Shown: positions 11,744-61,136, counted from the stretch's first letter. The stretch: DNA of 64,000 nt from an uncultured Acidobacteriota bacterium (GCA_963785755.1 CAWAXG010000075.1:676837-740836); one strand, 5' to 3'. The notes: a model not told the origin generated them from the sequence alone. Translations and numbers: made by a program.

Positions 11744-11754
11744 GATATCCGTTT

Positions 11755-20086: not shown

Positions 20087-22601
20087 ATGTTCCCTCGCAC
20101 TCGCCGTCTGCTCGTGGTCATCGGCGTTCTGATCGGTCAGCCCGCGCTGCACGCCTGGTCCCCGTCACTGATGGGTGACCGCGTCGAGTGGGCTGCGGCC
20201 GGCGCGGCCCAGAGCTGCTCCTACAGTCTGTCCGCCACCAGTGCCTCAGTGTCTTCGACCGGAACCACCGCCGGCTCGCTGTCGGTCGTCACCGGCACCA
20301 ACTGTTCCTGGACCTCGGTCAGCCACGACGCGTGGATCACGGTGACAGGTGGCGCGAGCGGAACGGGAATCGGTCAAGTCGCGTACAGCGTCGCCGCGAA
20401 CACGACCGGCGGCCAGCGCGTCGGCACCATGACGATCGCCGGCATGACCTACACGGTGACCCAGAGCGCGACCGGCTGCACGGTCAACCTCTCCGCGACC
20501 AGCGCCTCGGTCCCCTCGACCGGCAGCACCGCGGGCGCGTTGTCCGTCGTCACGGGCACGAGCTGTTCATGGACGGCGGTCAGCAACGCCGCCTGGATCA
20601 CCGTCACGAACGGCGCCAGCGGAACGGGAATCGGTCAGGTCGCGTACACCGTTGCGGCGAACACGACCGGCAGCCAGCGCGTCGGCACCATGACCATCGC
20701 CGGGCAGACCTTCACGGTCACCCAGAGCGGAAGCAGTTGCACGTACAGCCTCTCGGCGACGAGCGCCGCCGTGCCTTCGACCGGCAGCTCCGCCGGCGCG
20801 TTGTCCATCGTCAGCGGCACCAGCTGTTCATGGACGGCGGTCAGCAACGCCGCCTGGATCACCGTCACGAACGGCGCGAGCGGATCCGGAATCGGTCAGG
20901 TCGCGTACACCGTCGCCGCGAACACGACCGGCAGTCAGCGCGTCGGCACCATGACCATCGCCGGGCAGACCTTCACGGTCACCCAGAGCGGAGCCAGTTG
21001 CACCTACAGCCTCTCGGCGACGAGCGCCGCCGTGCCTTCGACCGGCAGCACCGCCGGCGCGTTGTCCATCGTCAGCGGCACCAGCTGTTCATGGACGGCG
21101 GTCAGCAACGCCGCCTGGATCACGGTCACAACGGCGCGAGCGGATCCGGAATCGGTCAGGTCGCGTACACCGTGGCCGCGAACACGACGGGCAGTCAGCG
21201 CGTCGGCACCATGACGATCGCCGGGCAGACCTACACGGTCACCCAGGCCGCCGCCAGTTGCACCTACAGCCTCTCGGCAACGAGCGCCTCCGTGCCTTCG
21301 ACCGGCAGCACCGCCGGCGCGTTGTCCATCGTCACGGGCACGAGCTGTTATGGACGGCCGTCAGCAACGCCGCCTGGATCACGGTCACCAACGGCGCGAG
21401 CGGATCCGGAATCGGTCAGGTCGCGTACACCGTGGCCGCGAACACGACGGGCAGTCAGCGCGTCGGCACCATGACGATCGCCGGGCAGACCTACACGGTC
21501 ACCCAGGCCGCCGCCAGTTGCACCTACAGCCTCTCGGCAACGAGCGCCTCCGTGCCTTCGACCGGCAGCACCGCGGGATCGTTGTCCGTCGTCACGGGCA
21601 CGAGCTGTTCATGGACCGCCGTCAGCAACGCCGCCTGGATCACGGTCACCAACGGCGCGAGCGGATCCGGAATCGGTCAGGTCTCGTACACCGTCGCGGC
21701 GAACACGACCAGCAGCCAGCGAGTCGGGACCATGGCGGTCGCCGGAATTGGGTTCACCGTGACCCAGGCCGCCGCCAGCTGTTCGTACAGCCTCTCCGCA
21801 ACCAGCGCCTCCGTCCCGTCGACCGGCAGCACGGCCGGAGCGGCATCCGTCGTCACGGGCACGAGCTGTTTCTGGAACGCCTTCAGCAGCGCTGCGTGGA
21901 TCACGGTGACGAGCGGCGCGAGCGGAACGGGAATCGGTCAGGTCGCGTACAGCGTTGCGGCGAATACGACCGGCGGTCAGCGCATCGGCACGATGACGAT
22001 CGCGGGGATCACGTTCACCGTTACGCAGGCCGCCGCCAGCTGCACCTACAGCCTCTCGGCAACGAGCGCCTCCGTGCCCTCGACCGGCAGCACCGCGGGC
22101 GCGTTGTCCGTGGTCACGGGCACGAGCTGTTCATGGACAGCCGTCAGCAACGCCGGCTGGATCACGGTCACCAACGGCGCGAGCGGATCCGGAATCGGTC
22201 AGGTCGCGTACACCGTAGCGGCGAATACGACGAGCAGTCAGCGGGTCGGCACCATGACGATCGCCGGGCAGACCTTCACAGTCACCCAGAGTGGAAGCAG
22301 TTGCACGTATAGCCTCTCGGCGACGAGCGCCTCGGTGCCGTCGACCGGCAGCACCGCGGGCGCGCTGTCCGTCGTCACCGGCACGAGCTGTTCGTGGACC
22401 GCGGTCAGCAACGCCGCCTGGATCACGGTCACCAACGGCGCGAGCGGATCCGGAATCGGTCAGGTCGCGTACACCGTAGCGGCGAATACGACGAGCAGTC
22501 AGCGGGTCGGCACCATGACGATCGCCGGGCAGACCTTCACAGTCACCCAGGCCGGCTCGACAACACTCAGCGCGCCGACGGGCCTTCGCGTCGTCAAGTG
22601 A
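20087..22601 (+). pseudogene. Secreted protein of nine tandem BACON-like domains; two 1-nt deletions as assembled
   Basis: ATG 20087 gives signal MFPRTRRLLVVIGVLIGQPALHA. The repeat unit is ~87 aa: SC(T/S)YSLSATSA.VPSTGS.AG.LS.V.GTSCSWTAVSNAAWITVTNGASG.GIGQVAYTVAANTT.SQRVGTMTIAGQTFTVTQ. The frame changes at 21129 (caccaacgg read as cacaacgg) and 21349 (ctgttcatgg read as ctgttatgg), splitting it into ORFs 20000..21214, 20188..21474 and 21258..22601. Confidence 0.75.
20213..22550 (+). repeat. 9 x ~261-bp tandem coding repeat
   Basis: The period is visible directly (e.g. 20741 vs 21001). Runs of about 180 nt are identical between units (21131-21314 vs 21391-21574). Confidence 0.9.
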
Positions 22602-22644: not shown

Positions 22645-23530
22645 CTACGCCAAACCAAAAAGCTTCAGCGCGTTCTCTTTGAGAATCAGCGGCCGCACTT
22701 CGTCTTTGATCGCGATCTTCTCGAAGTCCGCCAGCCATCGATCCGGCGTGATCCACGGATAGTCCGAGCCGAACAGCACCTTGTGCCTGAGCAGTGAGTT
22801 GGCGTATTGCACGAGCGCCGGCGGAAAGTACTTGGGCGACCACCCGGACAGATCGATGTAGACGGTCGGCTTGTGCAGGCAGATCGAAATGGCTTCGTCC
22901 TGCCATGGGAACGACGGGTGCGCCATGATGATTGGCAGCTCGGGAAAATCGACAGCCACGTCATCGATGGGCATCGGGTTTCCGGTACTTGAGACGAATG
23001 CCGGCGCCGCCGGGTACACCGGTGCCGATCCCGCTGTGCCCGGTATGAAACAGAACCGGAAGCTTCGCCTCGGCGAACACCTCGTAGAGCGGGTAGGCGA
23101 TCGGGTCGTTCGGGAAGAACTGCTGGGCGGGCGGATGCAGTTTGAGGCCGTGGACGAGACCCGTCGCAATCAGCCGCTTCGCCTCCCGAACGGCCTCAGG
23201 GCCGCGTGTGGGATCGAGGCTGACGAACGCCAGGGCGATGTCCGCGTTGTCCGCGGCGAAGCGGAGAACCTCGTCGTTCGAGACCTGCCGGCGGCCGGAA
23301 AGCCGCTCGTCCACTGTGAACACTACAAACGCGATCCGGCGCGAACGGTAGTACTCCGCGAGGGCCGCCGGATTTCGCGGGGCGCCGCTGTCCCCGAAGG
23401 ACTTGCGCGCCGCGGCGTCGGCCACCGAGGCCTCCTCGACCTCGAGGTGCACGTGCACGTCGAATCCAGCCAGCTGCGTTTGATCAATCCCGGAACGTCG
23501 TTCCACGTGACTGTTGTCCTTCCCCGACAT
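22645..23530 (-). pseudogene. Amidohydrolase_2 family (ACMSD/LigW-type) metal-dependent hydrolase/decarboxylase; one frameshift as assembled
   Basis: The N-half (FDVHVHLE...VLFHTGHSG...GIRLKY) is in ORF 22961..23560 and the C-half (GNPMPIDDVAVDFPELPIIMAHP...LFGSDYPW) in ORF 22645..23169. The junction is at taccggaaaccc near 22980-22986. Start is ATG 23530 or GTG 23506, overlapping the upstream gene end. Confidence 0.7.
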
Positions 23531-25304
23531 CGATAACGGTTTCCGGCCGTGTGGTCGCATACAGGGCGTCGACCAGCGTCGCGCGATTCACCAGCACGGC
23601 ATTCTGGTTGACGGAGCCCTTTTCGGTGACTTCGTGCGCATCGATAGCGGGCGGCGCCTCGAGGATTACGGCGCGCCTGATCGACGTGGAGCTTCCGGGA
23701 AACATCGCCGCGAACGTCTCGAGCAGTTGCCGGATCTGCTCGTCGAATCGGACCGGCCCCAGCCCGCGACGCGTCTCGACGTTCGGGAAGATCAGCGCGG
23801 CCACGAACTCCCGATCGTGGCCCGCGATCACCACGTCGTGCACGACCGGGCCGCAATGCGCGAGGAACGCAATGCGAAGCGGCCCCACCCGTACCCACGT
23901 ACCGGTCGCCAGCTTGAAGTCCTCGGACAATCGCCCTTCGAAGGCGAATCCGCGGGAAGGGTCGTTCGCGTCGACGAAGCCGAGCGCATCGCCGAGCCGG
24001 TAGTATCCCTCCTCGTCGAATGCCGCGCGCGTCATTTCAGGATCCCGCCAGTATCCAGGGGTGATCGTGGGACCGCGCAGGCGCCCTTCGAGGTGCCGTC
24101 CCACCGGTGCCAGCTTGAGCTCCACGCCGGGGACCGGCACACCGATCCGGCCTCCCGTGAAATCCGCGTCGCCGGCACAGAGCGCAAAGGGTGCGCTCTC
24201 CGTTGCACCGAGGCCGGTCACGAGCGGAATCCTGCTCCCTCGTGCCTCGCGCGCCACGGCGTCGAGATCGTCCGCCACCTGCTGCCGCAGCGCCGCCGCA
24301 GCGCAGAAGAGCATCCGCAACCGGCTGAAGAACCGCGTGCGAAGCGCCGCATTCGAGCGAAGCCGCGGCACGAGCAGATCGTAGCCACGCGGCACGTTGA
24401 AGTACGCCGTGGCAGCGATGTCGCTGAGATTCGCCACGGTCGTCTCGAACCCCTCGGCCGTGGGCTTGCCATCGTCGATGTAAAGCGTTCCGCCGTTGTA
24501 CAGGACGATGCCGAAGTTGTGGTTGCCGCCGAAGGTGTGATTCCAGGGCAGCCAGTCGCACAGGACGGGCGGACTCTCGACGAGGATTGGCAGGACCGTC
24601 CGGATCATTTCCTGGTTCGCGCAGAGCATCCGCTGCGTGTTGATCACGCCCTTGGGCCTCCCGGTCGATCCCGACGTATAGAGGATCTTGGCGATCGTGT
24701 CTCCGCTGACACGGCGGTGCGCGTCGTCCACCGCGTCCGTGGGGTCAACCGACGTCAACTCGTCGAAGGACGTGGTGCCTGAGAGCGACCCGGAACAGGT
24801 CACGACTTCGACGCCGCGGCCATCCATGTTGGACAGCGCACGCTGGTAGCACTCGCCCTCCGCCGCGAACACAAGCCCGGGACGGAGCGCGGACCACACG
24901 GCTTTCAGCGTCGTGTACTCGCGGGCGATGAGCGAGTAGGCCGGCGCAACGGGGACGTACATCACTCCCGCATACATCGCGCCGAGCGCGAGCAGACCAT
25001 GCTCGATGCTGTTGCCTGACAGTATGACGACCGGACGGTCGGCGGAGAGCTTCCGGTCGATGAGCGACTGCGCGATTGCGCGGACACGCCTCAGCGTCTC
25101 CGCGTACGACACGCTGCGCCACGCTCCCTGGGCGTCGCGGCGCGCGAGAAACGCACGGTCAGGCTCCTCTGCTGCCCAGGATTCCAACCGCTCAGTGATC
25201 CTGCCGGGATACGCGCCGAGCGGATGCGGCGACCGCGCGTAGACAACACCGCCCGGGGCGCGGTCGATCAGCGTTACAGGTGACAGGATTCGGGATCGTT
25301 CCAT
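23484..25304 (-). CDS. AMP-dependent acyl-CoA synthetase, feruloyl-CoA-synthetase-like
   Basis: 606 aa. AMP-binding motif YTSGSTGRPKGV. Length and N-terminal region resemble the hydroxycinnamate/feruloyl-CoA ligase type. Substrate not established. Confidence 0.7.
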   Translation of the reverse strand: MERSRILSPVTLIDRAPGGVVYARSPHPLGAYPGRITERLESWAAEEPDRAFLARRDAQGAWRSVSYAETLRRVRAIAQSLIDRKLSADRPVVILSGNSIEHGLLALGAMYAGVMYVPVAPAYSLIAREYTTLKAVWSALRPGLVFAAEGECYQRALSNMDGRGVEVVTCSGSLSGTTSFDELTSVDPTDAVDDAHRRVSGDTIAKILYTSGSTGRPKGVINTQRMLCANQEMIRTVLPILVESPPVLCDWLPWNHTFGGNHNFGIVLYNGGTLYIDDGKPTAEGFETTVANLSDIAATAYFNVPRGYDLLVPRLRSNAALRTRFFSRLRMLFCAAAALRQQVADDLDAVAREARGSRIPLVTGLGATESAPFALCAGDADFTGGRIGVPVPGVELKLAPVGRHLEGRLRGPTITPGYWRDPEMTRAAFDEEGYYRLGDALGFVDANDPSRGFAFEGRLSEDFKLATGTWVRVGPLRIAFLAHCGPVVHDVVIAGHDREFVAALIFPNVETRRGLGPVRFDEQIRQLLETFAAMFPGSSTSIRRAVILEAPPAIDAHEVTEKGSVNQNAVLVNRATLVDALYATTRPETVIDVGEGQQSRGTTFRD

Positions 25305-25318
25305 CGAGATCTGATGCG

Positions 25319-25554
25319 CGTCGGTTCAAATGTTCAAGGGTTCAGGAGTTCAGAGGTTCGGGTTCAGGGATTCAACAGTTCGGGTTCAACAGTTCGAGCG
25401 TTCAAGGTTCAGCGATCTCGCCGCTGATCTCTCGAATCTTGGACATCTGAACCTGAACCCCTGAACCCCGAAGCCTTGAACCTGAACATCTGACCCCCCG
25501 AACCCTTGAACCCGAACCTCTGAACCCTTGAACTCTTGAACCATTGAACCGACG
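25319..25554. repeat. Family B simple-word palindrome, copy B2
   Basis: CGTCGGTTCA + ~12 GTTCR words (25319-25411), a 34-nt loop, ~13 TGAAC words, then TGAACCGACG (25446-25554). The outer ~45 nt of the arms are well complementary. Fills the gap between the FadB-like stop (25569) and the ligase start (25304). Confidence 0.9.
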
Positions 25555-25568
25555 AAAGCGGCGCGAGA

Positions 25569-27689
25569 TCACCGTCGCCGATCGTGATCCCTGAACGTCC
25601 CCCCGGCCGCGGCCAACCGCGACAAGAGCGGCGCGGGCGACCACCGTTCCCCGTGCTCGCGATGAAACGCGGCGACTCGTTCGTGGATCACCGGCAGGCC
25701 GACGAGGTCGGCGTGGAACATCGGACCGCCGCGCCACGCTGGAAAGCCATAGCCGTTGGCGTAGATGACGTCGATGTCCGATGCCCGGCCCGCGGACCCG
25801 TCCTCGACGATTCGCGCGCCTTCGTTGACCAGCGCATAGATGCAGCGTTCGACGATCTCCCGATCGGTGAACGTCCGCTGCGGAATGCCGGCCTCCCTCG
25901 CGGTTGCCTTGATCAAGTCGTTCACGATCGGGTCGGGTGAAGGCTTGCGGTTCTCATCGTAGCGATACCAGCCGCTGCCGCTCTTCTGCCCGACTCGGCC
26001 AAGCTCGTAGAGCTTGTCGGCAACCAGCGGCCTGCGGCCACTTCCGTCGCGAAAGTGACCGAGCTCCTGACGCACGCGCCACGCGACATCGATGCCGGCC
26101 ATGTCATCGACCGCGAAAATGCCCATCGCCATCCCGAAATCGGTGAGCGCCCGGTCCACCTGTTCGGGCGTCGCGCCCTCTTCGACCAGGAACTGCGCTT
26201 CGTACATGTAGGGGAACATCATGCGGTTGCCGACGAACCCGCGGCAGTTCGCCACCACCACCCCGACCTTCCCCAGCCGCCTGGCGAACGCGAGACCGGT
26301 CGCGAGCACGTCTGCCTGGGTTGCCTGCCCGCGCACGATCTCGAGCAGCCGCATCACGTGGGCGGGACTGAAAAAGTGGAGGCCGATGACCTGTCCGGGA
26401 CGCGAGGTCGCGCCCGCGATCGCGTCGATGTCGAGCGTCGAGGTGTTCGTCGCGAGCACGGCGGACGGCCTGGCCACGCCATCGAGCTCACGAAAAATCT
26501 GCTTCTTCAGCTCGAGGCTCTCGAAGACCGCTTCGACAATCAGATCGGCGGCGCTGAAGCCGTCGTAGGACAGCGATGGTTGGATGCGTGCGAGCCGGTC
26601 AGCGACGTCTTCCCGTGTCAGCCGGCCGCGGCTGATCGACGATTCGTAGTTGCGCTGAATCGTCCCGATACCCGCATCGAGGGCAGCCTGCGAGCCTTCC
26701 TTGATGGTGACCTGAAGCCCCGCGTTCGCGCACGCGATGGCGATGCCGCCTCCCATCGTGCCGGCGCCGACGACGGCCACCCGGGAGATCGGCCGCGGCG
26801 CGGCGTCCTTCGGAAGATCCCGCACTTTCGAGACGGCCCGCTCCGCGAAGAACAGATGAATCAGGGCCTTCGCCTGGTCCGTCTCGACGCACTCGAAGAA
26901 CAGCTCGCGTTCGCGGCGGCAGCCGTCGGCAAAGGACATCGTGGTTGCTGCGTCGATGGCGTCGATCGCCTTCAAGGGCGCTGTTTGACGACGGCGGACT
27001 TTCGCGGCGAGCTCGCGGGCGGCGGCAAACAACGGGGCATTCTCCGCTGGAGACCCGAGCCGGTCGGATTTCGCGCTGGTCCTCCGTCCGCTCGTGCCGC
27101 TGGCCGCGACCTCGCGGGCGAAGCTGATCGACTCGGCCACGAGATCGCCTTCGATCACCGCGTCGATGAGACCGGCCGCAACCGCGTCACGGCCTTTGAG
27201 CGGCCGGCCCGTCACGCACATGTCGAGGGCCTTCGCGACGCCGACCAGCCGCGGGAGCCGCTGTGTGCCTTCCGCGCCGGGAATGATCCCGAGGTTCACC
27301 TCGGGCTGGCCAATCAGCGCGTCGGCGACGGCGACGCGATAGTGCCCCGCCATCGCGAGCTCGAGCCCGCCGCCGAGCGCCGTGCCATGGATCGCCATGA
27401 CGATCGGCTTGCGGCAGTCCTCGATCCGGGCGAGGAGGTCGTGAAGGTCGGCGGCCGCAGCGCGATTGCCCCACGCCGCCGCCTCCAGGCTGGCGATATC
27501 GGCGCCCGCGACGAACGTCTTTCCCGCGCCCTTGAGCACGATCGCGCGAACCGACACGTCCTGCTCCGCTGCCGCGAGCGCCTCGACGATGGCGTCGGGC
27601 ACGCCGGGGCTGAGCGCATTGACCGGAGGATTGTCGATTTCGAGGAGCCGCACACCGTCGTGTGCACTGACCTGTACGAGGTTCGTCAT
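25569..27689 (-). CDS. Bifunctional enoyl-CoA hydratase / 3-hydroxyacyl-CoA dehydrogenase (FadB/FadJ-like)
   Basis: 706 aa from ATG 27689 (ATGA overlap with the upstream stop). N-terminal crotonase fold (NPPVNAL...GGGLELAMA) and a central NAD-binding VVGAGTMGGGIA. Confidence 0.85.
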   Translation of the reverse strand: MTNLVQVSAHDGVRLLEIDNPPVNALSPGVPDAIVEALAAAEQDVSVRAIVLKGAGKTFVAGADIASLEAAAWGNRAAAADLHDLLARIEDCRKPIVMAIHGTALGGGLELAMAGHYRVAVADALIGQPEVNLGIIPGAEGTQRLPRLVGVAKALDMCVTGRPLKGRDAVAAGLIDAVIEGDLVAESISFAREVAASGTSGRRTSAKSDRLGSPAENAPLFAAARELAAKVRRRQTAPLKAIDAIDAATTMSFADGCRRERELFFECVETDQAKALIHLFFAERAVSKVRDLPKDAAPRPISRVAVVGAGTMGGGIAIACANAGLQVTIKEGSQAALDAGIGTIQRNYESSISRGRLTREDVADRLARIQPSLSYDGFSAADLIVEAVFESLELKKQIFRELDGVARPSAVLATNTSTLDIDAIAGATSRPGQVIGLHFFSPAHVMRLLEIVRGQATQADVLATGLAFARRLGKVGVVVANCRGFVGNRMMFPYMYEAQFLVEEGATPEQVDRALTDFGMAMGIFAVDDMAGIDVAWRVRQELGHFRDGSGRRPLVADKLYELGRVGQKSGSGWYRYDENRKPSPDPIVNDLIKATAREAGIPQRTFTDREIVERCIYALVNEGARIVEDGSAGRASDIDVIYANGYGFPAWRGGPMFHADLVGLPVIHERVAAFHREHGERWSPAPLLSRLAAAGGTFRDHDRRR

Positions 27690-28843
27690 TCGCGTGTTCT
27701 GTCGAGCTCTTCCGCCGCGATGTGAAATGCGGTGTTCGCCGCCGGCACTCCGGCGTAGACCGCCAGCTGCAGCAGCACCTCTTGCAGGTCGCACTGTTCG
27801 AGCTCGTGCGTCAGGCCTGTCCGGACGTGCAGCCGGAATTCCTCCCAGCGCCCGAGCGCGGCGGTCGTCGTGAGCACGAGAAGACGGCGCGTTCGATGAT
27901 CGAGGCCCGGCCGCGCCCAGATCGTTCCCCAGGGAAACCGGGTGATCAGCTCCTGGAAGTCTCTGGTGAGGTCCGTCGCGGCGGCCGTGCTGGCGTCCAC
28001 GTGCGCGTCACCGAGTACGGCTCGCCGAACTGCCATGCCGGTCTCGATCGAGCCGTCAGCAGGCTTGATGAGGAAATCGAGCACCGTGGCAGCGAACGTT
28101 CGCGGCCGTTCGATGTTCGAGAGATGCGCCGTCTGCAGCCGCAGTGCTTTCGCCCCGGCAATCGACTCCATCAGCCGCTCGCTGTGCGGACTCCAGGGTG
28201 TGGACACGTCACGATCGCCGCCGATGACGAGCGTGGGAGCGCGGATGGATCGGATCGTTGCGGTCTGGTCCATATCGCGAATCGCGGCGCAGCAGCCGGC
28301 GTAGCCGATCGGATCGGTGGCCAGGAACGTGCGCCGGATCGAGCCCACAATCGGCGCCGTCGGCTGGAGCACCGCCGGCGAAAAGAACCGCCCCATCACC
28401 ATCTCGACGACGGCGGCCATGCCACCGTCGAGCACCGCGCGGCGGCGATTCTCCATGGCCGCCGGGTCGGTCAGCCGCGGCGACGTGTTCGCGAGGACCA
28501 GCTGCGTGATCCGATCCGGCGCGCGGACGGCCAGCCATTGACCGATCATGCCGCCGAGCGACAGGCCGCAGAACGCGAACGTCGCCGCGCCCGCCGCATC
28601 CGCGACGGCGAGTGCATCATTCGCCAGCTGTTCGATCGAGTAGTCTCCGGGCGTCGCAGACGAGGCGCCATGTCCGCGGGTGTCGAAGCGCAGGATGCGG
28701 AAATGCGGCAGCCAGTCGGCGATCTGCGGATCCCACATCCCATGATCGAGCCCGAGGGAATGCGACAACATCAACGCCGGACGGCCTTCCGCGCCATCGT
28801 CGCGGTAATACAGCCGCGCGCCGTTGGACTCGACGAACGCCAT
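27686..28843 (-). CDS. pcaL: Fused 3-oxoadipate enol-lactonase / 4-carboxymuconolactone decarboxylase
   Basis: 385 aa from ATG 28843. The alpha/beta-hydrolase part has nucleophile elbow GLSLGG. The C-terminal ~120 aa is a carboxymuconolactone decarboxylase (AhpD-like) domain. The start shares a base with the pcaB stop. Confidence 0.85.
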   Translation of the reverse strand: MAFVESNGARLYYRDDGAEGRPALMLSHSLGLDHGMWDPQIADWLPHFRILRFDTRGHGASSATPGDYSIEQLANDALAVADAAGAATFAFCGLSLGGMIGQWLAVRAPDRITQLVLANTSPRLTDPAAMENRRRAVLDGGMAAVVEMVMGRFFSPAVLQPTAPIVGSIRRTFLATDPIGYAGCCAAIRDMDQTATIRSIRAPTLVIGGDRDVSTPWSPHSERLMESIAGAKALRLQTAHLSNIERPRTFAATVLDFLIKPADGSIETGMAVRRAVLGDAHVDASTAAATDLTRDFQELITRFPWGTIWARPGLDHRTRRLLVLTTTAALGRWEEFRLHVRTGLTHELEQCDLQEVLLQLAVYAGVPAANTAFHIAAEELDRTRE

Positions 28844-30204
28844 CACGACCCCTCGCTGCCTGGAGCCGCGGATTCGGCGAGCAGTTGCCGGCGCAACGCC
28901 TCCGACTCTCCCAGATACTGCTCCGGCCGATCGACGCCTTCCAATGCCCTGGCTATCACCGCGTTCGTCAGCTCGGGCATCGCCCGCAGCACGTCGTGGA
29001 ACGAACGGTCCGACTCCTGGCTCCGCCGCACGGCCTCGGTGACGAGTCGCCGGGCGATGGCCGGCCCGACGTGAGGTCCGAGCGCGACGACCGCACGTTC
29101 CGCGAAGATGACCCCGGCCGTCGCGTCCAGATTCGCCTGCATCCTCGACGTGTTGACGCTCAGCCCCTCGAGGGCAGCCGCCACCGCGGCAGCCGCCGAT
29201 CCGGTGGTCTGCACGATCGACGCGATCGTTGGCCATTCCGCCTGGCTCCCGCCGACCGAACGCTCGTGCTCCTGCACCATCCCGGTGAGGAAGGCGGCCA
29301 CCAGACCCGGCATCCGCGTCGCCGCCGCGATCGCCACTGCCGAGCCCGCGGGGTTGCGCTTGTGCGGCATGCTCGAGGATCCCCCACCGCGTTCCGCAAC
29401 CTCACCGACCTCGGCCTGCATCAGCAGCGAAACGTCGCGCGCGATCTTGCCGAGCACCGCGGTGTACAACCCCATCGCCGCGATCGCCCCGCCCAGACGA
29501 TCCCGATCGGTGTGCCAGGGTGGCGCGGGACCAAGATCCAGCTCGGTCGCGAGCTCCATCGCGACAATGGCCGCGCGATCGCCGAACGCCGCCCTGGTCC
29601 CCGCCGCTCCCCCGAACTCGAGGACGAGCGCCGCGTGCCAGGCCGCCGACAGGCGCGACCACGATCGACTCAACGCCGCGCACCAGCCGGCGGCCTTCAG
29701 GCCAAAGGTGATCGGGGTGGCGGGCTGCAGGAGCGTGCGTCCCAGCATCACGGTCGAGGCATGCGCCTCCGAGAGCGTCCGCAGGGCGCGATCGATTCGG
29801 GCATGATCCGCCGCGAGCAGCGACTTCGCCCGCTTGAGGAGCAGTACCATCGCCGTGTCGGCGACATCCTGGCTGGTGGCCCCCCAGTGGACGTACTGCG
29901 CGCTCTCCGGATCGATTGCGCGGACTCGCTCGGTCAGCGCGCCCACGAGCGGAATCACCGGCGTGGCCGACTGGCGTGCCTCGCGGGCGATGGCGGCCAC
30001 GTCGAAGCGCTTCGCCTCGGCGGCCGCGGCGATGGCTTCCGCGACGGCCTCCGGAACGATGTCCGCGCGCGCGGCGGCGCGCGCCAGCGCCACCTCGAAA
30101 TCGAGCATGGCCTGCAGCACCGACTGGTTCGAGAAGACTTCGGCGAGCGAATCGGTCGTGGCGAGGCACTCGATCAGCCGCACGCTGCTCATGTTCTCGG
30201 CCAT
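28843..30204 (-). CDS. pcaB: 3-carboxy-cis,cis-muconate cycloisomerase
   Basis: 453 aa from ATG 30204. Fumarate-lyase superfamily signature GSSSMPHKRNP. Sits between pcaG and pcaL. Confidence 0.85.
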   Translation of the reverse strand: MAENMSSVRLIECLATTDSLAEVFSNQSVLQAMLDFEVALARAAARADIVPEAVAEAIAAAAEAKRFDVAAIAREARQSATPVIPLVGALTERVRAIDPESAQYVHWGATSQDVADTAMVLLLKRAKSLLAADHARIDRALRTLSEAHASTVMLGRTLLQPATPITFGLKAAGWCAALSRSWSRLSAAWHAALVLEFGGAAGTRAAFGDRAAIVAMELATELDLGPAPPWHTDRDRLGGAIAAMGLYTAVLGKIARDVSLLMQAEVGEVAERGGGSSSMPHKRNPAGSAVAIAAATRMPGLVAAFLTGMVQEHERSVGGSQAEWPTIASIVQTTGSAAAAVAAALEGLSVNTSRMQANLDATAGVIFAERAVVALGPHVGPAIARRLVTEAVRRSQESDRSFHDVLRAMPELTNAVIARALEGVDRPEQYLGESEALRRQLLAESAAPGSEGS

Positions 30205-30208
30205 CGCA

Positions 30209-30787
30209 TCAGAAATCGAAGAACACCGTTTCCCGATCTCCCTGGAGATGAATGGCGAAGTCCCATGTGTCCGGCGAGTCCCCGGCCGGCGACGCGAGTA
30301 GCGTCTCACGCCGGCTGGCCGGCACGAGCGCAAGGATCGGATCGGCGGCGAGCCCGGCGCCGCCGGCGAAATAGATGCGGGTGTAGACCTGACGCAGCAG
30401 GCCGCGCGCGAGCAGGCACACATTGATGTGCGCCGCCTGCGCCGGCCCGGCGCCGGCCGGCACCGGACCGGGATGGATCGTCTCGAAGACACACGCGCCG
30501 TTCCCGTCGGTCGGCAGCCGTCCGAAGCCGGTGAAAGTTTCGGCTGGTTCGCCGCTGGGCGATCGCTGCGGATACGCGCCCTGACGATCGGCGTGGTAGA
30601 TCTCGACCAGCGCATCGGGAACGGGCATCCCGTCACCGTCGAAAACTCGCACCCGCACCTTGATGCGCGCTCCAGCGTCGTTCGTGGCCGCGATGCGGCC
30701 GAGCGCGTCGTTGGTCGCCAGGCCGAAATGAAAGAACGGCCCGACCGTCTGCGACGGACTCGCGATCGGCCGGCTCTCGTCGGTCAT
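30209..30787 (-). CDS. pcaG: Protocatechuate 3,4-dioxygenase alpha subunit
   Basis: 192 aa from ATG 30787, with a 4-nt overlap with the pcaH stop. N-terminal PSQTVGPFFHFGL typical of PcaG. Confidence 0.85.
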   Translation of the reverse strand: MTDESRPIASPSQTVGPFFHFGLATNDALGRIAATNDAGARIKVRVRVFDGDGMPVPDALVEIYHADRQGAYPQRSPSGEPAETFTGFGRLPTDGNGACVFETIHPGPVPAGAGPAQAAHINVCLLARGLLRQVYTRIYFAGGAGLAADPILALVPASRRETLLASPAGDSPDTWDFAIHLQGDRETVFFDF

Positions 30788-31479
30788 GTGCGCTGCTCGA
30801 ACGGCGTCGAGTGGCGGCCGCGCAGCACGATGTCGAACCGGTAGCCGAGCGCCCACTCGGGTTCGGTGAGGCCCAGATCGAACTGCGAGATCAGCCGCTG
30901 GCGCGCCCGCTCGTCGGGAATCGACTGAAAGATCGGATCGTGCGGAAACAGCGGATCGTTGGGAAAGTACATCTGCGTGACCAGCCGCGACAGGAACGAC
31001 GTGCCGAACAGCGAGAAGTGAATGTGCGCGGGCCGCCACGCGTTCGGGTGATTGCGCCACGGATACGCACCCGGCTTGATGGTCACGAACCGGTAGCGCC
31101 CGTCGGCGTCGGTCATCGTCCGCCCCGCGCCGGTGAAATTCGGATCGAGCGGCGCCGGATGATCGTCCCGGGCATGAATGTACCGGCCGGCGGCATTGCA
31201 CTGCCAGAGCTCGATCAAGGTGTTCGGCACCGCGCGACCATCCTCGTCGATCACACGTCCGGCCACCACGATCCGCTCGCCTTGCGGCTCGCCGGCATGC
31301 TGGCGCGTGAGATCGTTGTCCACCTCTCCTATCGGCAGGTCGCCGAACAGCGGCGAGGCCAGATCCGTGAAGGTGCCGGGGATGCGGATCTGCGGCTGCT
31401 GCGGCGCGCGCCGGATGGTCGACTGGTACGGCGGATAGAAGAGCGACGGCTGGCTGTGCTGGCAATCCTGGCTGCTCAT
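30784..31479 (-). CDS. pcaH: Protocatechuate 3,4-dioxygenase beta subunit
   Basis: 231 aa. Intradiol dioxygenase core ELWQCNAAGRYIH...TIKPGAYPWRNHPNAWRPAHIHFSLFG. Confidence 0.9.
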   Translation of the reverse strand: MSSQDCQHSQPSLFYPPYQSTIRRAPQQPQIRIPGTFTDLASPLFGDLPIGEVDNDLTRQHAGEPQGERIVVAGRVIDEDGRAVPNTLIELWQCNAAGRYIHARDDHPAPLDPNFTGAGRTMTDADGRYRFVTIKPGAYPWRNHPNAWRPAHIHFSLFGTSFLSRLVTQMYFPNDPLFPHDPIFQSIPDERARQRLISQFDLGLTEPEWALGYRFDIVLRGRHSTPFEQRT

Positions 31480-31519
31480 GCGCGCAGGATGATGATACCG
31501 TCTCCCGGGAACGGCCGGG

Positions 31520-32617
31520 TCAACCCCACACCTCCTTCGCGACCAGCCCGACGAGCTCGAGCTTCCGCCGCTGATCGTCCGGCGACACGCTGTTTCCCTC
31601 GTGCGTCGACGCGAAGCCGCACTGAGGGCTCAACGCCAGCCGTTCGAGGGGAACAATCTTCGAGGCCTCGGCAATGCGGGTCCGGATCTCCTCCTGGCTC
31701 TCGAGACGCGGCACCTTGGTGCTGATCAATCCGAGCACGACAATGCGGTCGTCCGGGACGTGGCGCAGAGGCTCGAACGTGCCCGACCGTTCATCGTCGT
31801 ACTCGAGCAGGAACCGATCGAACCTGGCGCGGGTGAAGATCCGCGCCGCGATCCGGTCGTAGCCGCCCGACGCGTAGAACATGCTCTTGTGATTGCCGCG
31901 GCAGATGTGGATGCCGAAGGTGATGCCGGGGTGGCCCTCGATGATCGCGTTGTCGAGCTCGATGCACGCGTCGAGCATACGATCCGGATCGTTGCCGCGC
32001 TGCCGGTAGCCCTCGCGGATGTTCTCGTCGAGCAGCGCCGCGTACTGCGGCGCGTCGATCTGGACGTATTCGCAGCCGAGGCGGCCGAGCTCCGCGATCT
32101 CGCGACGGGTGAAATCGACGAGGTCCGCGAGATACGCGTCGCGCGTGGCGTAGGCACTGCGCGACCGGTCGGGATCGTAGTAGGCGGCGGCCTGCTGCGC
32201 GCTGATCAGCGTCACCTTCACGGGCCGGCGGGTCCGGCCGCGCAGGTAGGTGAACTCCTCGACGGCCATCTGCCGGCGCCATCGGAGCCTGTCCACGACC
32301 ACCGGCCGTTTCAACGCGGCCTGATGGCCGTCGTTGTCCCGGAACGTAATCGACCACCCCGCGTATTTGTCGAAGCCTTCGAGCGCCTCGACGAGGTGAC
32401 CGTAGAACGCGTAGCGCCGCAGCTCGCCGTCGGTGATCACATCGAGGCCGGCGGATTCCTGCAGCGCGACCGCCTCGTCTATTGCGCGATCCTCAATCGC
32501 CTTGAACGCGGCCGCGCCCAGTTCGCCGCGCTCGAGCTGGTCGCGCGCGGCGAGAAGGCTGGCCGGCCGAAGCAGGCTGCCGACGACGTCGGCTCTCCTG
32601 GAATGCTGCATCACCAT
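31520..32617 (-). CDS. MetE-like (cobalamin-independent methionine synthase C-terminal domain family) Zn methyltransferase homologue
   Basis: About 365 aa from ATG 32617 (the ORF opens at 32638, inside element B3). Candidate Zn ligands are retained: H-x-C in FGIHICRGN, Glu in LLEYDDE, Cys in LSPQCGFAS. Confidence 0.7.
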   Translation of the reverse strand: MVMQHSRRADVVGSLLRPASLLAARDQLERGELGAAAFKAIEDRAIDEAVALQESAGLDVITDGELRRYAFYGHLVEALEGFDKYAGWSITFRDNDGHQAALKRPVVVDRLRWRRQMAVEEFTYLRGRTRRPVKVTLISAQQAAAYYDPDRSRSAYATRDAYLADLVDFTRREIAELGRLGCEYVQIDAPQYAALLDENIREGYRQRGNDPDRMLDACIELDNAIIEGHPGITFGIHICRGNHKSMFYASGGYDRIAARIFTRARFDRFLLEYDDERSGTFEPLRHVPDDRIVVLGLISTKVPRLESQEEIRTRIAEASKIVPLERLALSPQCGFASTHEGNSVSPDDQRRKLELVGLVAKEVWG

Positions 32618-32627
32618 ACGCGATCTT

Positions 32628-32797
32628 CGTCGGTTCAAAGGTTCAGGAGTTCAAGCGGTTCGGGTTCAGGGGTTCAGCGGTTCAAGGGTTCGACAGGGTT
32701 CAGAGGTTCAACCTCCCGCGCGAACTCTCGAACGACTGAACCTGAACCTCTGAACCCGAACCCGTGAACGCCTGAACTGCTGAACGCTTGAACCGAC
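32628..32797. repeat. Family B simple-word palindrome, copy B3
   Basis: CGTCGGTTCA + ~10 GTTCR words, loop cctcccgcgcgaactctcgaacgac, then TGAAC words ending TGAACCGAC. Fills the gap between the pcaF stop (32802) and the MetE-like start. Confidence 0.9.
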
Positions 32798-32801
32798 TCC
32801 A

Positions 32802-34013
32802 TCAGACCTTTTCAATCACCATCGCAATTCCCTGTCCCACGCCTATGCACATCGTGCACAGCGCATAGCGGCCGCCGAGGCGCCGGAGCTGATACATCGC
32901 CGTCGTGACCAGCCGCGCGCCGCTGGCGCCGAGGGGGTGGCCGATCGCAATCGCTCCGCCGAGCGGGTTCACATGCGGGGCATCGTCTGGAACGCCCAGT
33001 TCCCGGAGGACGGCGAGCGCCTGCGCCGCGAACGCCTCGTTCAACTCGATGACATCCATCTGATCGATCCGCAGGCCGGCGCGATCGAGCAGCTTTCGCG
33101 ACGCCGGCACCGGTCCGATCCCCATGACACGGGGAGCGACTCCCGCGACCGCCGCCGCGACGTATCGCGCCCGGGGGCGAAGGCTGTATTCCGTCACCGC
33201 CTTTTCCGAAGCAAGCAGCAGCGCGCAGGCACCGTCATTGATGCCCGACGCGTTGCCGGCGGTCACCGAGCCGTCGGGCCGGACGACGGGCTTGAGCTTC
33301 GAGAGCGCCTCGCGGGTCGTGTCGGGACGCGGGTGCTCATCGGTCTCGACGTTGACGGCCCCCTTGCGCTGATGGACGCTGACCGGAACGATTTCATCGG
33401 CGAGCCGGCCGTCGGCGATCGCCGCCGCCGCGCGCTGCTGGCTGCGAAACGCGAACGCGTCCTGATCCTCGCGGGACACGCCGTACGCCGCGGCGACGTT
33501 CTCCGCCGTTTCGGCCATCGAGTCGATGCCGTACGCCTCCTGCATCCGGGGATTGACGAACCGCCAGCCGAGCGTGCTGTCTTCGAACTTGATCGAACGG
33601 GAGAACGGCGCGTCGGTCTTGCTCATGACGAACGGCGCCCGCGACATGCTCTCGACACCGCCGGCGACAACCAGATCCATTTCACCCGTGGCAATCGCCC
33701 GGGCGGCGATCGCGACTGCCTCCAGGCTGGACCCGCAGAGCCGGTTGACCGTCACGCCGGGCACATCCTCGGGAAGCCCCGCGAGCAGCAACGCCATCCG
33801 CGCGACGTTCCGGTTGTCCTCGCCAGCCTGATTGGCGCAGCCATAGATCACGTCATCGATCCGGTGCCAGTCGACCCGGGAGTTGCGATGACGGAGCGCC
33901 TGAATGGGCACCGCGGCGAGATCATCGGTGCGAACGCCGGCGAGTGCCCCGCCATACCGTCCGAACGGGGTCCGCACCGCATCGCAGATATACACTGCAT
34001 TCGAGTCGGGCAT
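32802..34013 (-). CDS. pcaF: 3-oxoadipyl-CoA thiolase / acetyl-CoA C-acyltransferase
   Basis: 403 aa. N-terminus [29 protein letters not shown] and [22 protein letters not shown] are typical of PcaF/PaaJ thiolases. Active-site NRLCGSS and C-terminal CIGVGQG. Confidence 0.85.
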
Positions 34014-34030
34014 TGTCTCCTCATGGATCT

Positions 34031-34296
34031 CGTCGGTTCAGTAGTTCAAGGGTTCAAGGGTTCACGGGTTCGGGTTCAGAGGTTCAAAGGTTCGATTCAG
34101 CGTTCAAAGGTTCAAAGGTTCGATGCGGTTGCTCGAGCGACCGCGCGCCAGCGAGCGCGGCTGAGTTCCAGTTGAACATTTGAACCACGGACGCCGAACC
34201 TGAACTCTTGAACCTTGGAACTCTTGAACTCTTGAACCTTGAACCTTGAACCCTTGAACCCTTGAACCCTTGAACCCCTGAACCTTTGAACCGACG
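34031..34296. repeat. Family B simple-word palindrome, copy B4 (largest)
   Basis: CGTCGGTTCA + ~11 GTTCR words (to ~34125), a 45-nt GC loop with its own small stem (ccgcgc...gcgcgg), then ~14 TGAAC words ending TGAACCGACG. Occupies most of the divergent region between pcaF (start 34013) and the cytochrome c gene (start 34347). Confidence 0.9.
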
Positions 34297-34346
34297 ACAA
34301 TCCAGCATCGTACAACCGCCCCGATTGTCTGTATCATCGAGTTGAA

Positions 34347-35465
34347 ATGAGCATCAGGATTCCCCACCGAATATGGCGTGCGGGCTCGCTCGTCGGACTG
34401 GCTCTGGTCACTCTGGTCTGGGCGTCCGGATTGGCGCAGGAAACGGCGAAGCCGGCGCAGGTGTCGACAGAGGATGCCCGCGGTCAGGAGACCTTCCTGC
34501 GGGTCTGTTTGAAGTGCCACCCGGCGGAACGCGTGACCGCCGAGGGGCGATCGCGCTCGCAATGGGAAAACACGATGATCGCGATGCAGACTTCGCGCGG
34601 CGCCGTGATCACACCGGAAGAGTTCGACATCGTCTTGAACTACCTGACGAAGTTTCACGGACGGGATGGCGCGCCAGCTCCGGGCGGAGCTGCGCCGGCG
34701 GCGGCCGGGCGTGGGCCGCGCGCGAACGTCGGCGCGGCGGACCGGCATCGTGTGGAACCAGCCGCTGCCGCGCGCGGCCAGAAGATCTACGCCGCCGAGT
34801 GCGTCACGTGTCACGGTGCGAGCGCGCGCGGAACCGAGCGCGGGCCGAACCTGATCCGATCGACCAGGGTCCTGCGCGACCGCTACGGCAGCGCGATTGG
34901 CCCGCTGCTCAAGCAGGGCCACCCCATGCAGACCGCGACGTCGAGCGCCAGCCTGACGACGGAGCAGATCACCGATCTCTCCCACTTCATCTGGGATCGC
35001 ATCAATAACACGCTGCGAGGATCCCCGGAGTTCGACGTCAAGAACGTCCTGAGCGGGGACCCAAAGGCCGGCGAGGCCTATTTCACGGGCGAAGGCCGCT
35101 GCAGCACGTGTCACTCGTCGACCGGCGACCTCGCGGGCTACGGCAAGCGCTATCAGCCGGTCGACATCCAGCAGCGCTTCGTCTTCCCGTTTGCGCTCGG
35201 TGGGCGCGGCCGGGGCGCAGGCCGACAGCAGGTCGTCGTCACGGTGACGATTCCCGGCCGGCCGCCGGTCTCGGGCGTCCTCGTCAGCATGGACGACTTC
35301 CACGTCGCGCTGCGCGATTCGGCCGGCGACTACAGGTCGTGGGCCCGCACGGACGACATGAAGATCGCGAGAAAAGACCCGTTCGCCGCGCACGTGGAGC
35401 TGCTCGACCGCCTCACGGACAAGACCATGCACGACGTCGTCGCTTATCTGGAGTCGTTGAAATGA
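34347..35465 (+). CDS. Exported tri-haem c-type cytochrome
   Basis: 372 aa. Signal peptide ...LVTLVWASGLAQE. Three CxxCH motifs (CLKCH, CVTCH, CSTCH). Directly upstream of a PQQ dehydrogenase. Confidence 0.8.
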   Translation: MSIRIPHRIWRAGSLVGLALVTLVWASGLAQETAKPAQVSTEDARGQETFLRVCLKCHPAERVTAEGRSRSQWENTMIAMQTSRGAVITPEEFDIVLNYLTKFHGRDGAPAPGGAAPAAAGRGPRANVGAADRHRVEPAAAARGQKIYAAECVTCHGASARGTERGPNLIRSTRVLRDRYGSAIGPLLKQGHPMQTATSSASLTTEQITDLSHFIWDRINNTLRGSPEFDVKNVLSGDPKAGEAYFTGEGRCSTCHSSTGDLAGYGKRYQPVDIQQRFVFPFALGGRGRGAGRQQVVVTVTIPGRPPVSGVLVSMDDFHVALRDSAGDYRSWARTDDMKIARKDPFAAHVELLDRLTDKTMHDVVAYLESLK

Positions 35466-35485
35466 GATGGAGCACTATGACTAAC

Positions 35486-35605
35486 GTCCTCAACTCCCAA
35501 CTCTCCAACTTCGCCCCGCCTCCGCGCAGCGCGATCGGCATCGACGCGTCGCCGGAGCGCGGCGGAGAATCGGCGAGTTGGGAGTTATCGCAGACTCTTG
35601 TTGAC
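35486..35605. repeat. Family A simple-word hairpin element, copy A4
   Basis: Left arm gtcctcaactcccaactctccaacttcgcc, a ~55-nt GC loop, and a short right arm ggcgagttgggagtt. A GTTGAC word at 35600-35605 overlaps the TTG start codons of the next gene. Confidence 0.7.
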
Positions 35606-37178
35606 AGCCCTGGCCTTCGTCGCAGCCGCCTCCATGCTGGTGAGCGCCCAGGGCCGCATGGATCCCGCGAAGCTGCTGAAGCCGGCGACCGACAGCTGGC
35701 CGACGTTCAATGGTGATTACTCCGGCCGGCGCTTCAGCCCGCTGACGAAGATCACGAACGGCAACGTGCAGCAGCTGAGTCTCGCGTGGATGCACCGGAT
35801 CACCGGCACGGGGCTGGGCGCCATCAAGAGCACACCGCTGCAGATCAACGGCGTCCTCTACTTCACCGTACCCGATCACGTCTGGGCCGTCGACGCCCGC
35901 ACCGGCCGCGAGATCTGGCACTACCAGTGGCAGACGACCGGCGGCAACCATCTGGGCAACCGCGGCGTCGCGGTGCACGAGGACTGGCTCTATTTCGAGA
36001 CGCCCGACTGCTTCCTCATCTCGCTGAACCTCAAGGACGGCAAGGAACGCTGGCGCAAGCAGATCTGCGACATCGACCGCTTCTACTACGCGTCGGTCGC
36101 GCCGACGATCATCAAGGATCAGCTGATCGTGGGCGTCAGCGGCGACGACTTCGATATCCCGGGCTACATCCAGTCGCACAACGCGGAGAGCGGCGAGTTC
36201 CAGTGGCGGTTCTATACCGTTCCGCAGAAGGCGGGCGATCCCGGATCGGAGAGCTGGCCGAACGAGGAGATGGCCAGGCACGGCGGCGGCATGACGTGGC
36301 AGCCGATCACCTACGACCCCGAGCTCAACTACGTCTTCGTGACCACCGGCAACCCGCAGCCGGTGATCGCGCACAAGAACCGCCCCGGCGACAATCTGTT
36401 CACCGGCTCGATCGTCGCGGTGCGCGCCGACTCCGGCTCATTGGCGTGGGCGTTCCAATCCTCACCGCACGACACGCACGACTGGGACTCGACGCAGACG
36501 GCGGTCTTGATCGACGACGAAGCCGGCGGACAGAAGCGCAAGCTGATTGCCCAGGCCGCCCGGAACGGCCACTACTTCCTGCTCGATCGCACCAACGGCA
36601 AAGCGATCGTCTCCGCTGAGTACGTCAAGAGCAACTGGTGGAAAGGCTACGACGCCAAGGGTCAGCCGATTCCCGACCCCGCCAAGATGCCGCAGGTCGA
36701 CGGCGCACTCGTGTCGCCGAACCAGGGCGGCGCGACCAACTGGCAATCGCCCAGCTTCAGCCCGCTGACCGGCCTGTTCTACGTGAGCGCCGCGCGCGCC
36801 TACAGCATCTATTACATCTACGACCCGAGCGAGAACCCGATGGGATGGGGCGGATTCGATCGCGGCGGCTGGTCCGAGTCGATGCTCCAGGCGATCGACT
36901 ACAAGACCGGCAAGGTTCGCTGGACGCACAAATGGGAGGGCAACGCGGCGCGCAGCGGGATCGTCAGCACCGCCGGCAACGTGCTGTTCACCGGCGGTCC
37001 CTCCAACGACATCGTCGCGCTCGACGCCACGACCGGAAAGGCGCTCTGGCATGCCGGCATCAACGGCCCGATCACGAATGGCCCTATTACCTACGAGCTC
37101 GATGGACGGCAGTACGTGATCGCTGCGTCGGGAGATACTCTTTGGGCGTTCGTGCTCAACTCCACGCCGTCGAAGTGA
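35598..37178 (+). CDS. PQQ-dependent dehydrogenase (quinoprotein alcohol/sugar dehydrogenase beta-propeller)
   Basis: 526 aa. TTG start (35598 or 35601), with no ATG/GTG upstream in frame. Signal-like LTALAFVAAASMLVSAQG. N-terminus WPTFNGDYSGRRFSPL and repeated propeller W-motifs. N-terminus uncertain. Confidence 0.8.
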   Translation: MLTALAFVAAASMLVSAQGRMDPAKLLKPATDSWPTFNGDYSGRRFSPLTKITNGNVQQLSLAWMHRITGTGLGAIKSTPLQINGVLYFTVPDHVWAVDARTGREIWHYQWQTTGGNHLGNRGVAVHEDWLYFETPDCFLISLNLKDGKERWRKQICDIDRFYYASVAPTIIKDQLIVGVSGDDFDIPGYIQSHNAESGEFQWRFYTVPQKAGDPGSESWPNEEMARHGGGMTWQPITYDPELNYVFVTTGNPQPVIAHKNRPGDNLFTGSIVAVRADSGSLAWAFQSSPHDTHDWDSTQTAVLIDDEAGGQKRKLIAQAARNGHYFLLDRTNGKAIVSAEYVKSNWWKGYDAKGQPIPDPAKMPQVDGALVSPNQGGATNWQSPSFSPLTGLFYVSAARAYSIYYIYDPSENPMGWGGFDRGGWSESMLQAIDYKTGKVRWTHKWEGNAARSGIVSTAGNVLFTGGPSNDIVALDATTGKALWHAGINGPITNGPITYELDGRQYVIAASGDTLWAFVLNSTPSK

Positions 37179-37195
37179 TGACGATGACTGAAGAC

Positions 37196-37356
37196 GTCAA
37201 CTTCCAACTCCCAATCTCCAACTCCCAACTTCCAAAGCGAATGGCTCGTAGCATTGGGGTGAAAATCGCAGCGATCTACCCGATTGCACCGGCTTTCACC
37301 CAGGCGAGTTCCGGCGACTCGCTTTGGGAGTTGGAGATCGGGAGTTGGGAGTTGAC
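37196..37356. repeat. Family A simple-word hairpin element, copy A5
   Basis: gtcaacttccaactcccaatctccaactcccaacttccaaagcga (37196-37240), a 77-nt loop, then tcgctttgggagttggagatcgggagttgggagttgac (37318-37356). The arms differ by one hexamer unit. Ends 13 nt before ATG 37369. Confidence 0.9.
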
Positions 37357-37368
37357 GAGAGTGCACCT

Positions 37369-61127: not shown

Positions 61128-61136
61128 GTCATGTCG

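Follow-up and report, generated by a model that had tools for sequence, protein, structure and literature searches.

Tandem-word foldback elements between genes of an uncultured Acidobacteriota bacterium and their putative relation to S23p-carrying rRNA intervening sequences

The GGTTCA/TGAACC palindromes B2, B3 and B4 and the one-armed copy B1, located in the 64,000-nt stretch of DNA analysed here (the window), belong to a dispersed, lineage-restricted and hypervariable foldback family, termed family B. With a probability of roughly 0.6, they represent miniature copies, devoid of an ORF, of an interspersed element of the foldback type in Vicinamibacteria-type Acidobacteriota, for which the closest known system is the S23p-carrying rRNA intervening sequence (IVS). 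In this reading, an element consists of two inverted arms of tandem 8-nt GGTTCANN words with (C)GTCGG caps and a short variable centre, its full-length relatives carry a PF05635 gene between the arms, and copies are located in short intergenic spacers, including junctions inside operons, with quick gain, loss and exchange.

Structure and genomic placement of the elements

B2, B3 and B4 are palindromes of 170-266 nt, the arms of which are tandem 8-nt words and the ends of which are (C)GTCGG...CCGAC(G). All three read CGTCGGTTCA, 10-11 GTTCR words, a short centre, 10-14 YGAAC words and TGAACCGAC(G). In B2 (25319-25554), the left arm (25319-25411) contains 11 GTTCR words, the centre (25412-25447) has a length of 36 nt and the right arm (25448-25554) contains 12 YGAAC words, with the termini CGTCGGTTCA...TGAACCGACG. 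B3 (32628-32797) has 10 words in each arm, and B4 (34031-34296), which is located in the divergent cyt c/pcaF gap, has 11 and 14 words and a 50-nt centre. B1 (approximately 10184-10272) is a solo arm with eight YGAAC words and the CCGAC terminus only, abutting the stop codon of a GFO/IDH/MocA oxidoreductase gene. The word period is mostly 8 nt, with 6, 7 or 16 nt now and then, and within the words a core of 5-6 nt is conserved while the spacers are variable. The three palindromes and the one-armed copy had been reported in a preliminary description of this DNA; they are real, and the sequence reads as described there.

The double word GGTTCANNGGTTCA, with at most one mismatch, was matched 35 times in the window, compared to 0.09 matches expected from shuffled sequences. 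All except one of these matches are located inside B2-B4, and the exception lies in B1. The terminus GTCGGTTCANNNGTTCA is present at exactly six sites in the window, which are both ends of B2, B3 and B4. Furthermore, these three copies have an internal landmark in common, a short GTTCGGGTTCA word near the fifth position, which argues for common descent and not for independent look-alikes. Near-identical family-B copies within one genome, as a recent copy-and-paste transposition would leave them, were not found; the copies are 70-84% identical, with 84% for the best pair. As a side observation, GATCT is located 0-13 nt outside the plus-strand left end in all four family-B copies of the window (25306-25318, 32620-32627, 34024-34030 and 10176-10183) and near about 8% of the family-B ends in other genomes, which clearly exceeds the frequency expected by chance. 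The motif may have a role in targeting or processing.

Together with its flanks, B2 has a predicted folding energy of -135.3 kcal/mol on the minus strand, which is the sense strand, while shuffled sequences average -87.6 kcal/mol (z = -8.6); for the plus strand, the value is -128.3 kcal/mol (z = -9.0). In the predicted fold, the outer words are paired almost without break and the inner part is more bulged, which bears out the remark that the outer parts of the B2 arms match well and the inner parts loosely.

B2 and B3 are located inside the pca operon, in which the genes are ordered PcaF thiolase, MetE-like, PcaH/G, PcaB, PcaD/C fusion, FadB-like, AMP-ligase and amidohydrolase, based on Pfam and on gene calls from a near-identical contig. 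Between the pcaF-type 3-oxoadipyl-CoA thiolase gene (32802-34013, minus strand) and the MetE-like (Meth_synt_2) gene (31520-32617, minus strand; 365 aa in the gene calls of the near-identical contig), there is a gap of 184 nt, 170 of which are B3. B3 lies 4 nt after the pcaF stop codon, the MetE-like ATG is located about 10 nt downstream of B3, and B4 lies 17 nt before the pcaF ATG. Likewise, B2 accounts for 236 of the 264 nt between the gene for a FadB-like enoyl-CoA hydratase/3-hydroxyacyl-CoA dehydrogenase (25569-27794, minus strand, upstream start uncertain), which ends with its stop codon 14 nt before B2, and the AMP-dependent ligase gene (23484-25304, minus strand), the ATG of which lies 14 nt downstream of B2. 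An element thus starts 4-14 nt past the upstream stop codon and ends 10-17 nt ahead of the downstream start codon. No Shine-Dalgarno motif was seen by eye in the 14 nt between B2 and the ligase ATG (CGCATCAGATCTCG). The observation that the two large gaps of the pca operon are the elements could therefore be confirmed, and the additional statement that all other junctions measure 0-40 nt or overlap holds for those checked on the near-identical contig (40 nt, an overlap and 4 nt).

Two further features were observed in and beside this operon. At its end (22645-23560), the amidohydrolase is split into two overlapping ORFs, corresponding to the Amidohydro_2 profile positions 2-157 and 156-289, which reflects a frameshift or pseudogene, or else an error of long-read sequencing. 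At 20216-22554, a plus-strand ORF encodes repeated BACON domains in nine tandem repeats of a 261-nt unit with 88% identity.

The region 23000-35000 was scanned for intrinsic terminators, of which none was detected at the elements, and no T/U run follows the stems. Ordinary (bidirectional) intrinsic terminators or attenuators between operon segments would be in line with strong GC-containing hairpins directly after stop codons, but this explanation is extremely unlikely: neither side of any copy has a T/U run, the stems of about 100 bp far exceed the length of terminator stems, and termination at these sites would cut off the downstream genes of a conserved pathway. An identity as intrinsic terminator was rejected for the lack of a U tract behind the stem-loops. 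A search of the whole window against Rfam 15 resulted in no match at gathering score, including no rRNA. Among 16 elements located between co-directional genes (with crude gene calls), 9 fold better on the sense strand and 7 on the opposite strand; a G-U wobble signature that would point to RNA-level selection is thus absent.

Variation among close strains and related operons

For the comparison of near-identical strains, an ENA contig encoding an identical PcaF protein (L058) was used, which represents a close strain (about 99.5% identical) that is distinct from the window. Over approximately 7.2 kb, the coding DNA differs at about 0.2% of the positions, with no differences in the 1212 nt of pcaF. 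Most of the differences fall inside the elements and are whole-word indels, reshuffled words and one swapped interior. In B4, about 20 differences were counted, including 8- and 12-nt indels, and the word order is reshuffled. The left arm of B3 is without one 7-nt word in the window compared to the symmetric copy of L058; the predicted fold of the symmetric copy reaches -120 kcal/mol and that of the window copy -102 kcal/mol. In an element with other words (family A, 35485-35586), compared over 35476-35624 of the window, the interior is replaced in L058 by a GCACGACG-word palindrome between retained family-A tips, an arrangement suggestive of a nested insertion or of a swapped cassette. In a third strain with a 98% identical PcaF, the gaps are 285 and 187 nt long, compared to 333 and 184 nt in the window. 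Some differences between the window and L058 are possibly long-read assembly errors, and single-base indels occur in the coding sequence too; word-sized changes and a swapped interior are atypical of such errors. As the words are all alike, a hairpin still pairs after slippage, and arms of unequal word number fold well. The arms would accordingly change by whole-word slippage in the proposed mechanism, with a pairing that survives the register shift.

By means of PcaF homologues, six related operons (L059-L064) were collected. In L059, with an 84% identical PcaF, the FadB stop codon abuts the ligase start codon in the sequence TGAATG. B2 is absent from this 0-nt junction, and FadB and ligase are translationally coupled there. 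The cyt c/pcaF gap, which comprises 333 nt in the window, contains no array in L059, L060 and L061, where it measures 108, 70 and 79 nt, respectively. At the same position, L062 has a GGTTCA-tipped palindrome of GGTTCTAG words, L063 an array of AGCACGT words starting with CGTCGGTGCA (the family-B CGTCGG), and L064 (1165-1620) a different hairpin of about 330 nt, which is bracketed by arrays of CCAATTC- and ATTCGG-type words. Further arrays, e.g., of AGAAGTC and CAGCTGT words, are carried by the relatives 3' of the pcaF stop codon. The PQQ-dehydrogenase/AP_endonuc_2 junction, which spans 191 nt and contains a family-A element in the window, has a length of only 29-31 nt in L060 and L061. Moreover, CGTCGGCGCCCGA was observed at 9960-9985 of L059, the site of the B4 start. 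It is a word-less mini-hairpin with the family-B tip (CGTCGG), which may represent a seed or a footprint or be located there by coincidence.

Different word families at one and the same site in the relatives, together with the L059 mini-hairpin, count against the reading of the elements as cassettes, as they could also reflect evolution in place. Small junction hairpins could have been extended at each site separately, with slippage of replication in both arms and without transposition. This explanation is compatible with the whole-word indels and reshuffled words between near-identical strains, with the different words at the cyt c/pcaF position in L062, L063 and L064, and with the fact that the L063 array begins with CGTCGG and that L059 has the word-less hairpin there. 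It is considered improbable, however, because it cannot give the identical GTCGGTTCA terminus, the 8-nt word and the GTTCGGGTTCA landmark at three sites of the window, nor their occurrence in many genomes, and because it leaves the consistent pairing with PF05635 (described below) unexplained.

The strain comparison also bears on the function that had been assigned to the elements. In the preliminary description, their placement was taken as that expected of intra-operon RNA structures, with independent promoters inside the gaps as a possible counterargument; a sigma-70-like promoter scan of 23000-35000 detected none at the elements. One part of that idea stands: the elements are located inside a presumed single transcript and form exceptionally stable predicted hairpins without a U tract or a sigma-70-like promoter, so they could plausibly influence how the RNA is processed, or how stable it is, between segments of the operon. 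The other part, in which the placement is a regulatory design for the pca operon, is not supported, as the family occurs elsewhere, is absent from orthologous junctions of relatives and is hypervariable. Dedicated regulatory RNA structures, selected to set the segment stability or the read-through of the pca transcript, would explain why the elements fill exactly both large operon gaps, why they fold so stably and why neither promoter nor terminator was detected there. We nevertheless regard this as unlikely, since B2 is missing from the orthologous FadB/ligase junction of L059, family B and its sister families are found at unrelated junctions and in other genomes, no flanking sequence changes as fast as the elements when near-identical strains are compared, and neither a sense-strand bias in folding energy nor an Rfam match was obtained. 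The placement reflects sites that tolerate selfish hairpins and not the design of the pca operon, and if the operon segments are affected at all, this is most likely a by-product of selfish repeats with a fast turnover.

Sister families, dispersal and association with PF05635

Further word families are present in the window. Family A has 7-nt CAACTCC/GGAGTTG words, a build like that of family B and often CGTCAACT...AGTTGACG ends. Palindromes of this family are located at 871-966, at 11651-11744, where the element fills the GSDH/GFO-oxidoreductase junction, at 35485-35586 in the cyt c/PQQ-dehydrogenase junction, at 37195-37357 in the PQQ-dehydrogenase/AP_endonuc_2 junction (with the termini CGTCAACT...AGTTGACG) and at 60971-61128 between an aldehyde dehydrogenase gene and its upstream neighbour gene. 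Family C is represented by an array of CACGTGC-type words at 44694-44894, which begins 2 nt past a stop codon, and by an array of ACGTGCT words at 62556-62676, which begins directly upstream of a start codon. The family-A and family-C elements of the window mostly fill junctions between co-directional genes. When tandem arrays were matched to those with reverse-complementary words by a detector, the Acidobacteriota loci yielded at least 12 different palindromes of this kind, and 80 loci with PcaF relatives of greater distance (69-77% identical, among the matches listed) yielded none.

The dispersal of family B was determined with the pattern GTCGGTTCANNNGTTCANNNGTTCA, which combines the terminus with words, in one genome per species. 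This resulted in 57 stretches, the majority of which are from several Acidobacteriota metagenome-assembled genomes (Vicinamibacterales and others) and include complete family-B palindromes in unrelated neighbourhoods. The remaining matches are scattered singles in other phyla and mostly one-armed arrays. In an alignment of 71 family-B ends, the sequence outside GTCGG is not conserved, and no consistent direct repeat adjoins GTCGG that would indicate a target-site duplication; there is only a loose enrichment of GATCT near some of the ends. The family-B terminus was not found on viral contigs. Neither a transposase nor a target-site duplication nor a clean empty/filled pair with exact breakpoints was found as a sign of DNA mobility, and it is the distribution of the copies that suggests that the elements are mobile.

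Several side observations were made among the matches. One metagenome-assembled genome (CAWHWW01; L001, L005, L008 and others) is labelled 'uncultured cyanobacterium', and has a GC content of 64-65% and, like the Acidobacteriota genomes, family-B matches (about 20); the label is probably wrong. In L001 (3215-3395), a family-B element is located exactly mid-way in another inverted repeat, GCGGATTCTACATCCTC, and this motif also flanks a copy in L050 (7600-7625), which suggests a nesting of repeat families. In L055 (1741-4314) and L012 (553-2190), inverted family-B arms are separated by 1.5-2.5 kb and enclose several unrelated genes, among them a Fic/Doc-like and a metallo-beta-lactamase-fold gene (assigned by eye from the translations). 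These distant pairs may be composite cargo or a chance pairing of solo arms.

Some family-B arm pairs are 350-510 nt apart. In L057 and L007, the arms enclose a gene of the family PF05635 (23S rRNA intervening-sequence protein; E = 8.6e-24 and 4.5e-17, respectively), and in the loci L001-L144 and the window these are the only two PF05635 genes. In L002 and L031, the arms enclose a small secreted-protein ORF and not PF05635, and these two pairs speak against the cassette reading. A profile built from the L057 and L007 proteins yielded 2116 homologues. Four further homologues were looked up (L145-147, L148, L149 and L150), and in all four cases an array of GGTTCA words precedes the gene and one of TGAACC words follows it, in neighbourhoods that are all different. 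In 53 of the 120 best homologues among these 2116, the protein ends in EP, NP or TK. In the two cases checked at the DNA level, the terminal codons and the stop codon come from the first TGAACC words (L007, 6405-6460, ...AENP*; L150, 1880-1960, ...RVNRRTK*). Many over-long gene calls read through the arrays, giving GFKGFK, GSRVHGFT and EPxEP repeats. Among diverse representatives, a few read-through ends show other words beside PF05635 genes (GTGCCTG, GTGCCGA and GTTCGGC), hence the architecture is not limited to one word. GGTTCA words stay associated with one clade of PF05635, even where the protein identity is as low as about 35%.

S23p/PF05635 proteins are four-helix bundles with the fold of Avd, an accessory protein of diversity-generating retroelements, and to our knowledge they have no enzymatic or transposase activity. 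The nearest solved structure is 2GSC (XCC0516, an S23p homologue of Xanthomonas). PF05635 has been described as an Avd homologue of unknown function that is encoded in rRNA intervening sequences (PMC10053308; bioRxiv 10.1101/2024.02.27.582315).

As an alternative to foldback cassettes, the arms could be DNA-level arrays of binding sites for a protein (a PF05635 pentamer or a nucleoid protein) that organise the chromosome or its replication. The regular 8-nt spacing, the conserved core of 5-6 nt between variable spacers, the existence of solo arms and the long-term association of GGTTCA with one PF05635 clade (about 35% identity) would be in agreement with such sites. The 8-nt period, however, does not match the helical repeat of DNA, the sister families use many unrelated words, and the occurrence of most copies as inverted pairs rather suggests that hairpins are formed. 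This alternative is thus quite improbable. In the preferred reading as members of a foldback family with PF05635-carrying relatives, the window copies would be internal-deletion miniatures of PF05635 cassettes.

Comparison with known systems and implications

The S23p-carrying rRNA IVS of the Leptospira, Coxiella and Xanthomonas type (PMC4990558) is alike in several respects. It has inverted ends that form a long stem around an ORF for the PF05635/S23p four-helix bundle, short tandem heptamers of strain-variable number in the stem region and a sporadic, selfish-looking distribution. The IVS of the Coxiella 23S rRNA is a selfish hairpin with an S23p ORF, has strain-variable tandem heptamers near the stem and is excised by RNase III (PMC4990558). 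The insertion is tolerated as a hairpin in an RNA that can be cut, by RNase III in Coxiella and, by analogy, possibly also here. Inverted ends forming a long stem around a PF05635 ORF were found in L057, L007, L145, L148, L149 and L150, while B1-B4 have the arms and no ORF. Unlike the IVS, family-B elements are located in the spacers of protein-coding operons and not in rRNA helices, and by location an rRNA IVS was rejected, as all copies examined lie between protein-coding genes. Further differences are the long arms, in which as many as about 26 words are arrayed, the lack of an ORF in many copies, including all four in the window, and the coexistence of several word families in one Acidobacteriota genome.

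REP, BIME and REPIN sequences, including the CGTC-tagged REP superfamily (PMC3733652), are abundant extragenic palindromes between co-directional and convergent genes as well, often occur as inverted pairs folding into a larger hairpin, are thought to influence mRNA stability and have a CGTC motif at their ends. REP units have a length of 20-40 bp with stems of 5-13 bp and each unit is itself palindromic, whereas family-B words are non-palindromic and tandem, with 170-266 bp in total. In CGTC-tagged REPs, a stem of 8-9 bp with a small loop carries the tetranucleotide tag unpaired at one end (PMC3733652). In contrast, CGTC/GACG is located at both ends of the family-B elements and is paired, and for these reasons of word type, length and tag position the CGTC-tagged REP was rejected. 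REPs occur with RAYT, an IS200/IS605-type tyrosine transposase that is flanked by the repeats; between the family-B arms examined, no RAYT was seen, and the associated gene is PF05635.

Bacterial MITEs are likewise small, ORF-less, multi-copy and intergenic, with inverted ends and longer ORF-carrying relatives, and the B2-B4 family shows inverted ends, small size, no ORF and multiple copies. In contrast to MITEs, no target-site duplication was detected, the longer relatives are without a recognisable transposase, and the arms are internally tandem-repetitive and hypervariable. A MITE with a transposase parent was rejected because the longer relatives with the same arms encode PF05635; the genes between the arm pairs examined are PF05635 or small secreted-protein ORFs and not transposases. 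An integron attC site has R''/R' cores (RYYYAAC/GTTRRRY) in an imperfect palindrome of 57-141 bp, with one site per promoterless cassette and an integrase adjacent. This candidate was rejected too, as the termini GTCGGTTCA/TGAACCGAC do not fit GTTRRRY and the flanked genes form a conserved catabolic operon.

In form, family B is closely similar to the eukaryotic Foldback transposons (Drosophila FB, Galileo and Tetris; PMC4079207, PMC3573991), which have long inverted arms of short tandem repeats, an arm length that varies among copies, conserved tips and a variable, sometimes coding centre. These belong to another domain of life, have no sequence relation and use P- or MULE-type transposases, so the analogy is one of form only. 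In the literature searched, neither foldback elements made of tandem words in Acidobacteria nor PF05635 cassettes at sites other than rRNA were found to have been described before.

If transcribed within the pca operon, the elements would form imperfect duplexes of about 100 bp, which, by analogy with the IVS, are probably hairpins of the RNase III type located between cistrons. If cut there, the polycistronic RNA would be separated into its cistrons without loss of either coding region, and we infer that insertions are tolerated in operon junctions because a duplex in this position can be cut. As a by-product, the cleavage or the leftover half-stems may alter how stable the upstream segment is and how translation starts on the downstream segment.

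A wider proposal may be entertained as a tentative possibility only. Tandem-word foldback cassettes with an Avd-like PF05635 gene might form an undescribed class of bacterial mobile elements, of which the rRNA IVS would be the best-known special case. The PF05635 protein would recognise the words of its own arms and help the hairpin to spread, trimming by RNase III would let the elements persist, and the ORF-less copies would be miniature progeny. If this were true, each word family would have its own clade of PF05635 proteins, the hundreds of ORF-less copies in genomes of the Vicinamibacteria type would be this progeny, and RNase III would trim the element from any transcript, be it rRNA or an intercistronic spacer.

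For genome annotation, the elements explain the large gaps in the tightly packed operons of soil Acidobacteria as well as many spurious or over-extended ORF calls (GSRVHGFT and EPxEP repeats). The origin, the mobility and the function of the rRNA IVS and of the S23p/PF05635 protein have been open for about 30 years. With a PF05635 gene in a multi-copy, fast-turning-over family that has ORF-bearing and miniature copies and differs visibly among near-identical strains, these questions become testable by comparative genomics and simple biochemistry. For the pca operon itself, a hairpin of about -135 kcal/mol at the position where the stop and start codons abut in L059 must change the production of the downstream cistron, and the FadB/ligase junctions of the window and of L059 constitute a natural experiment on operon processing.
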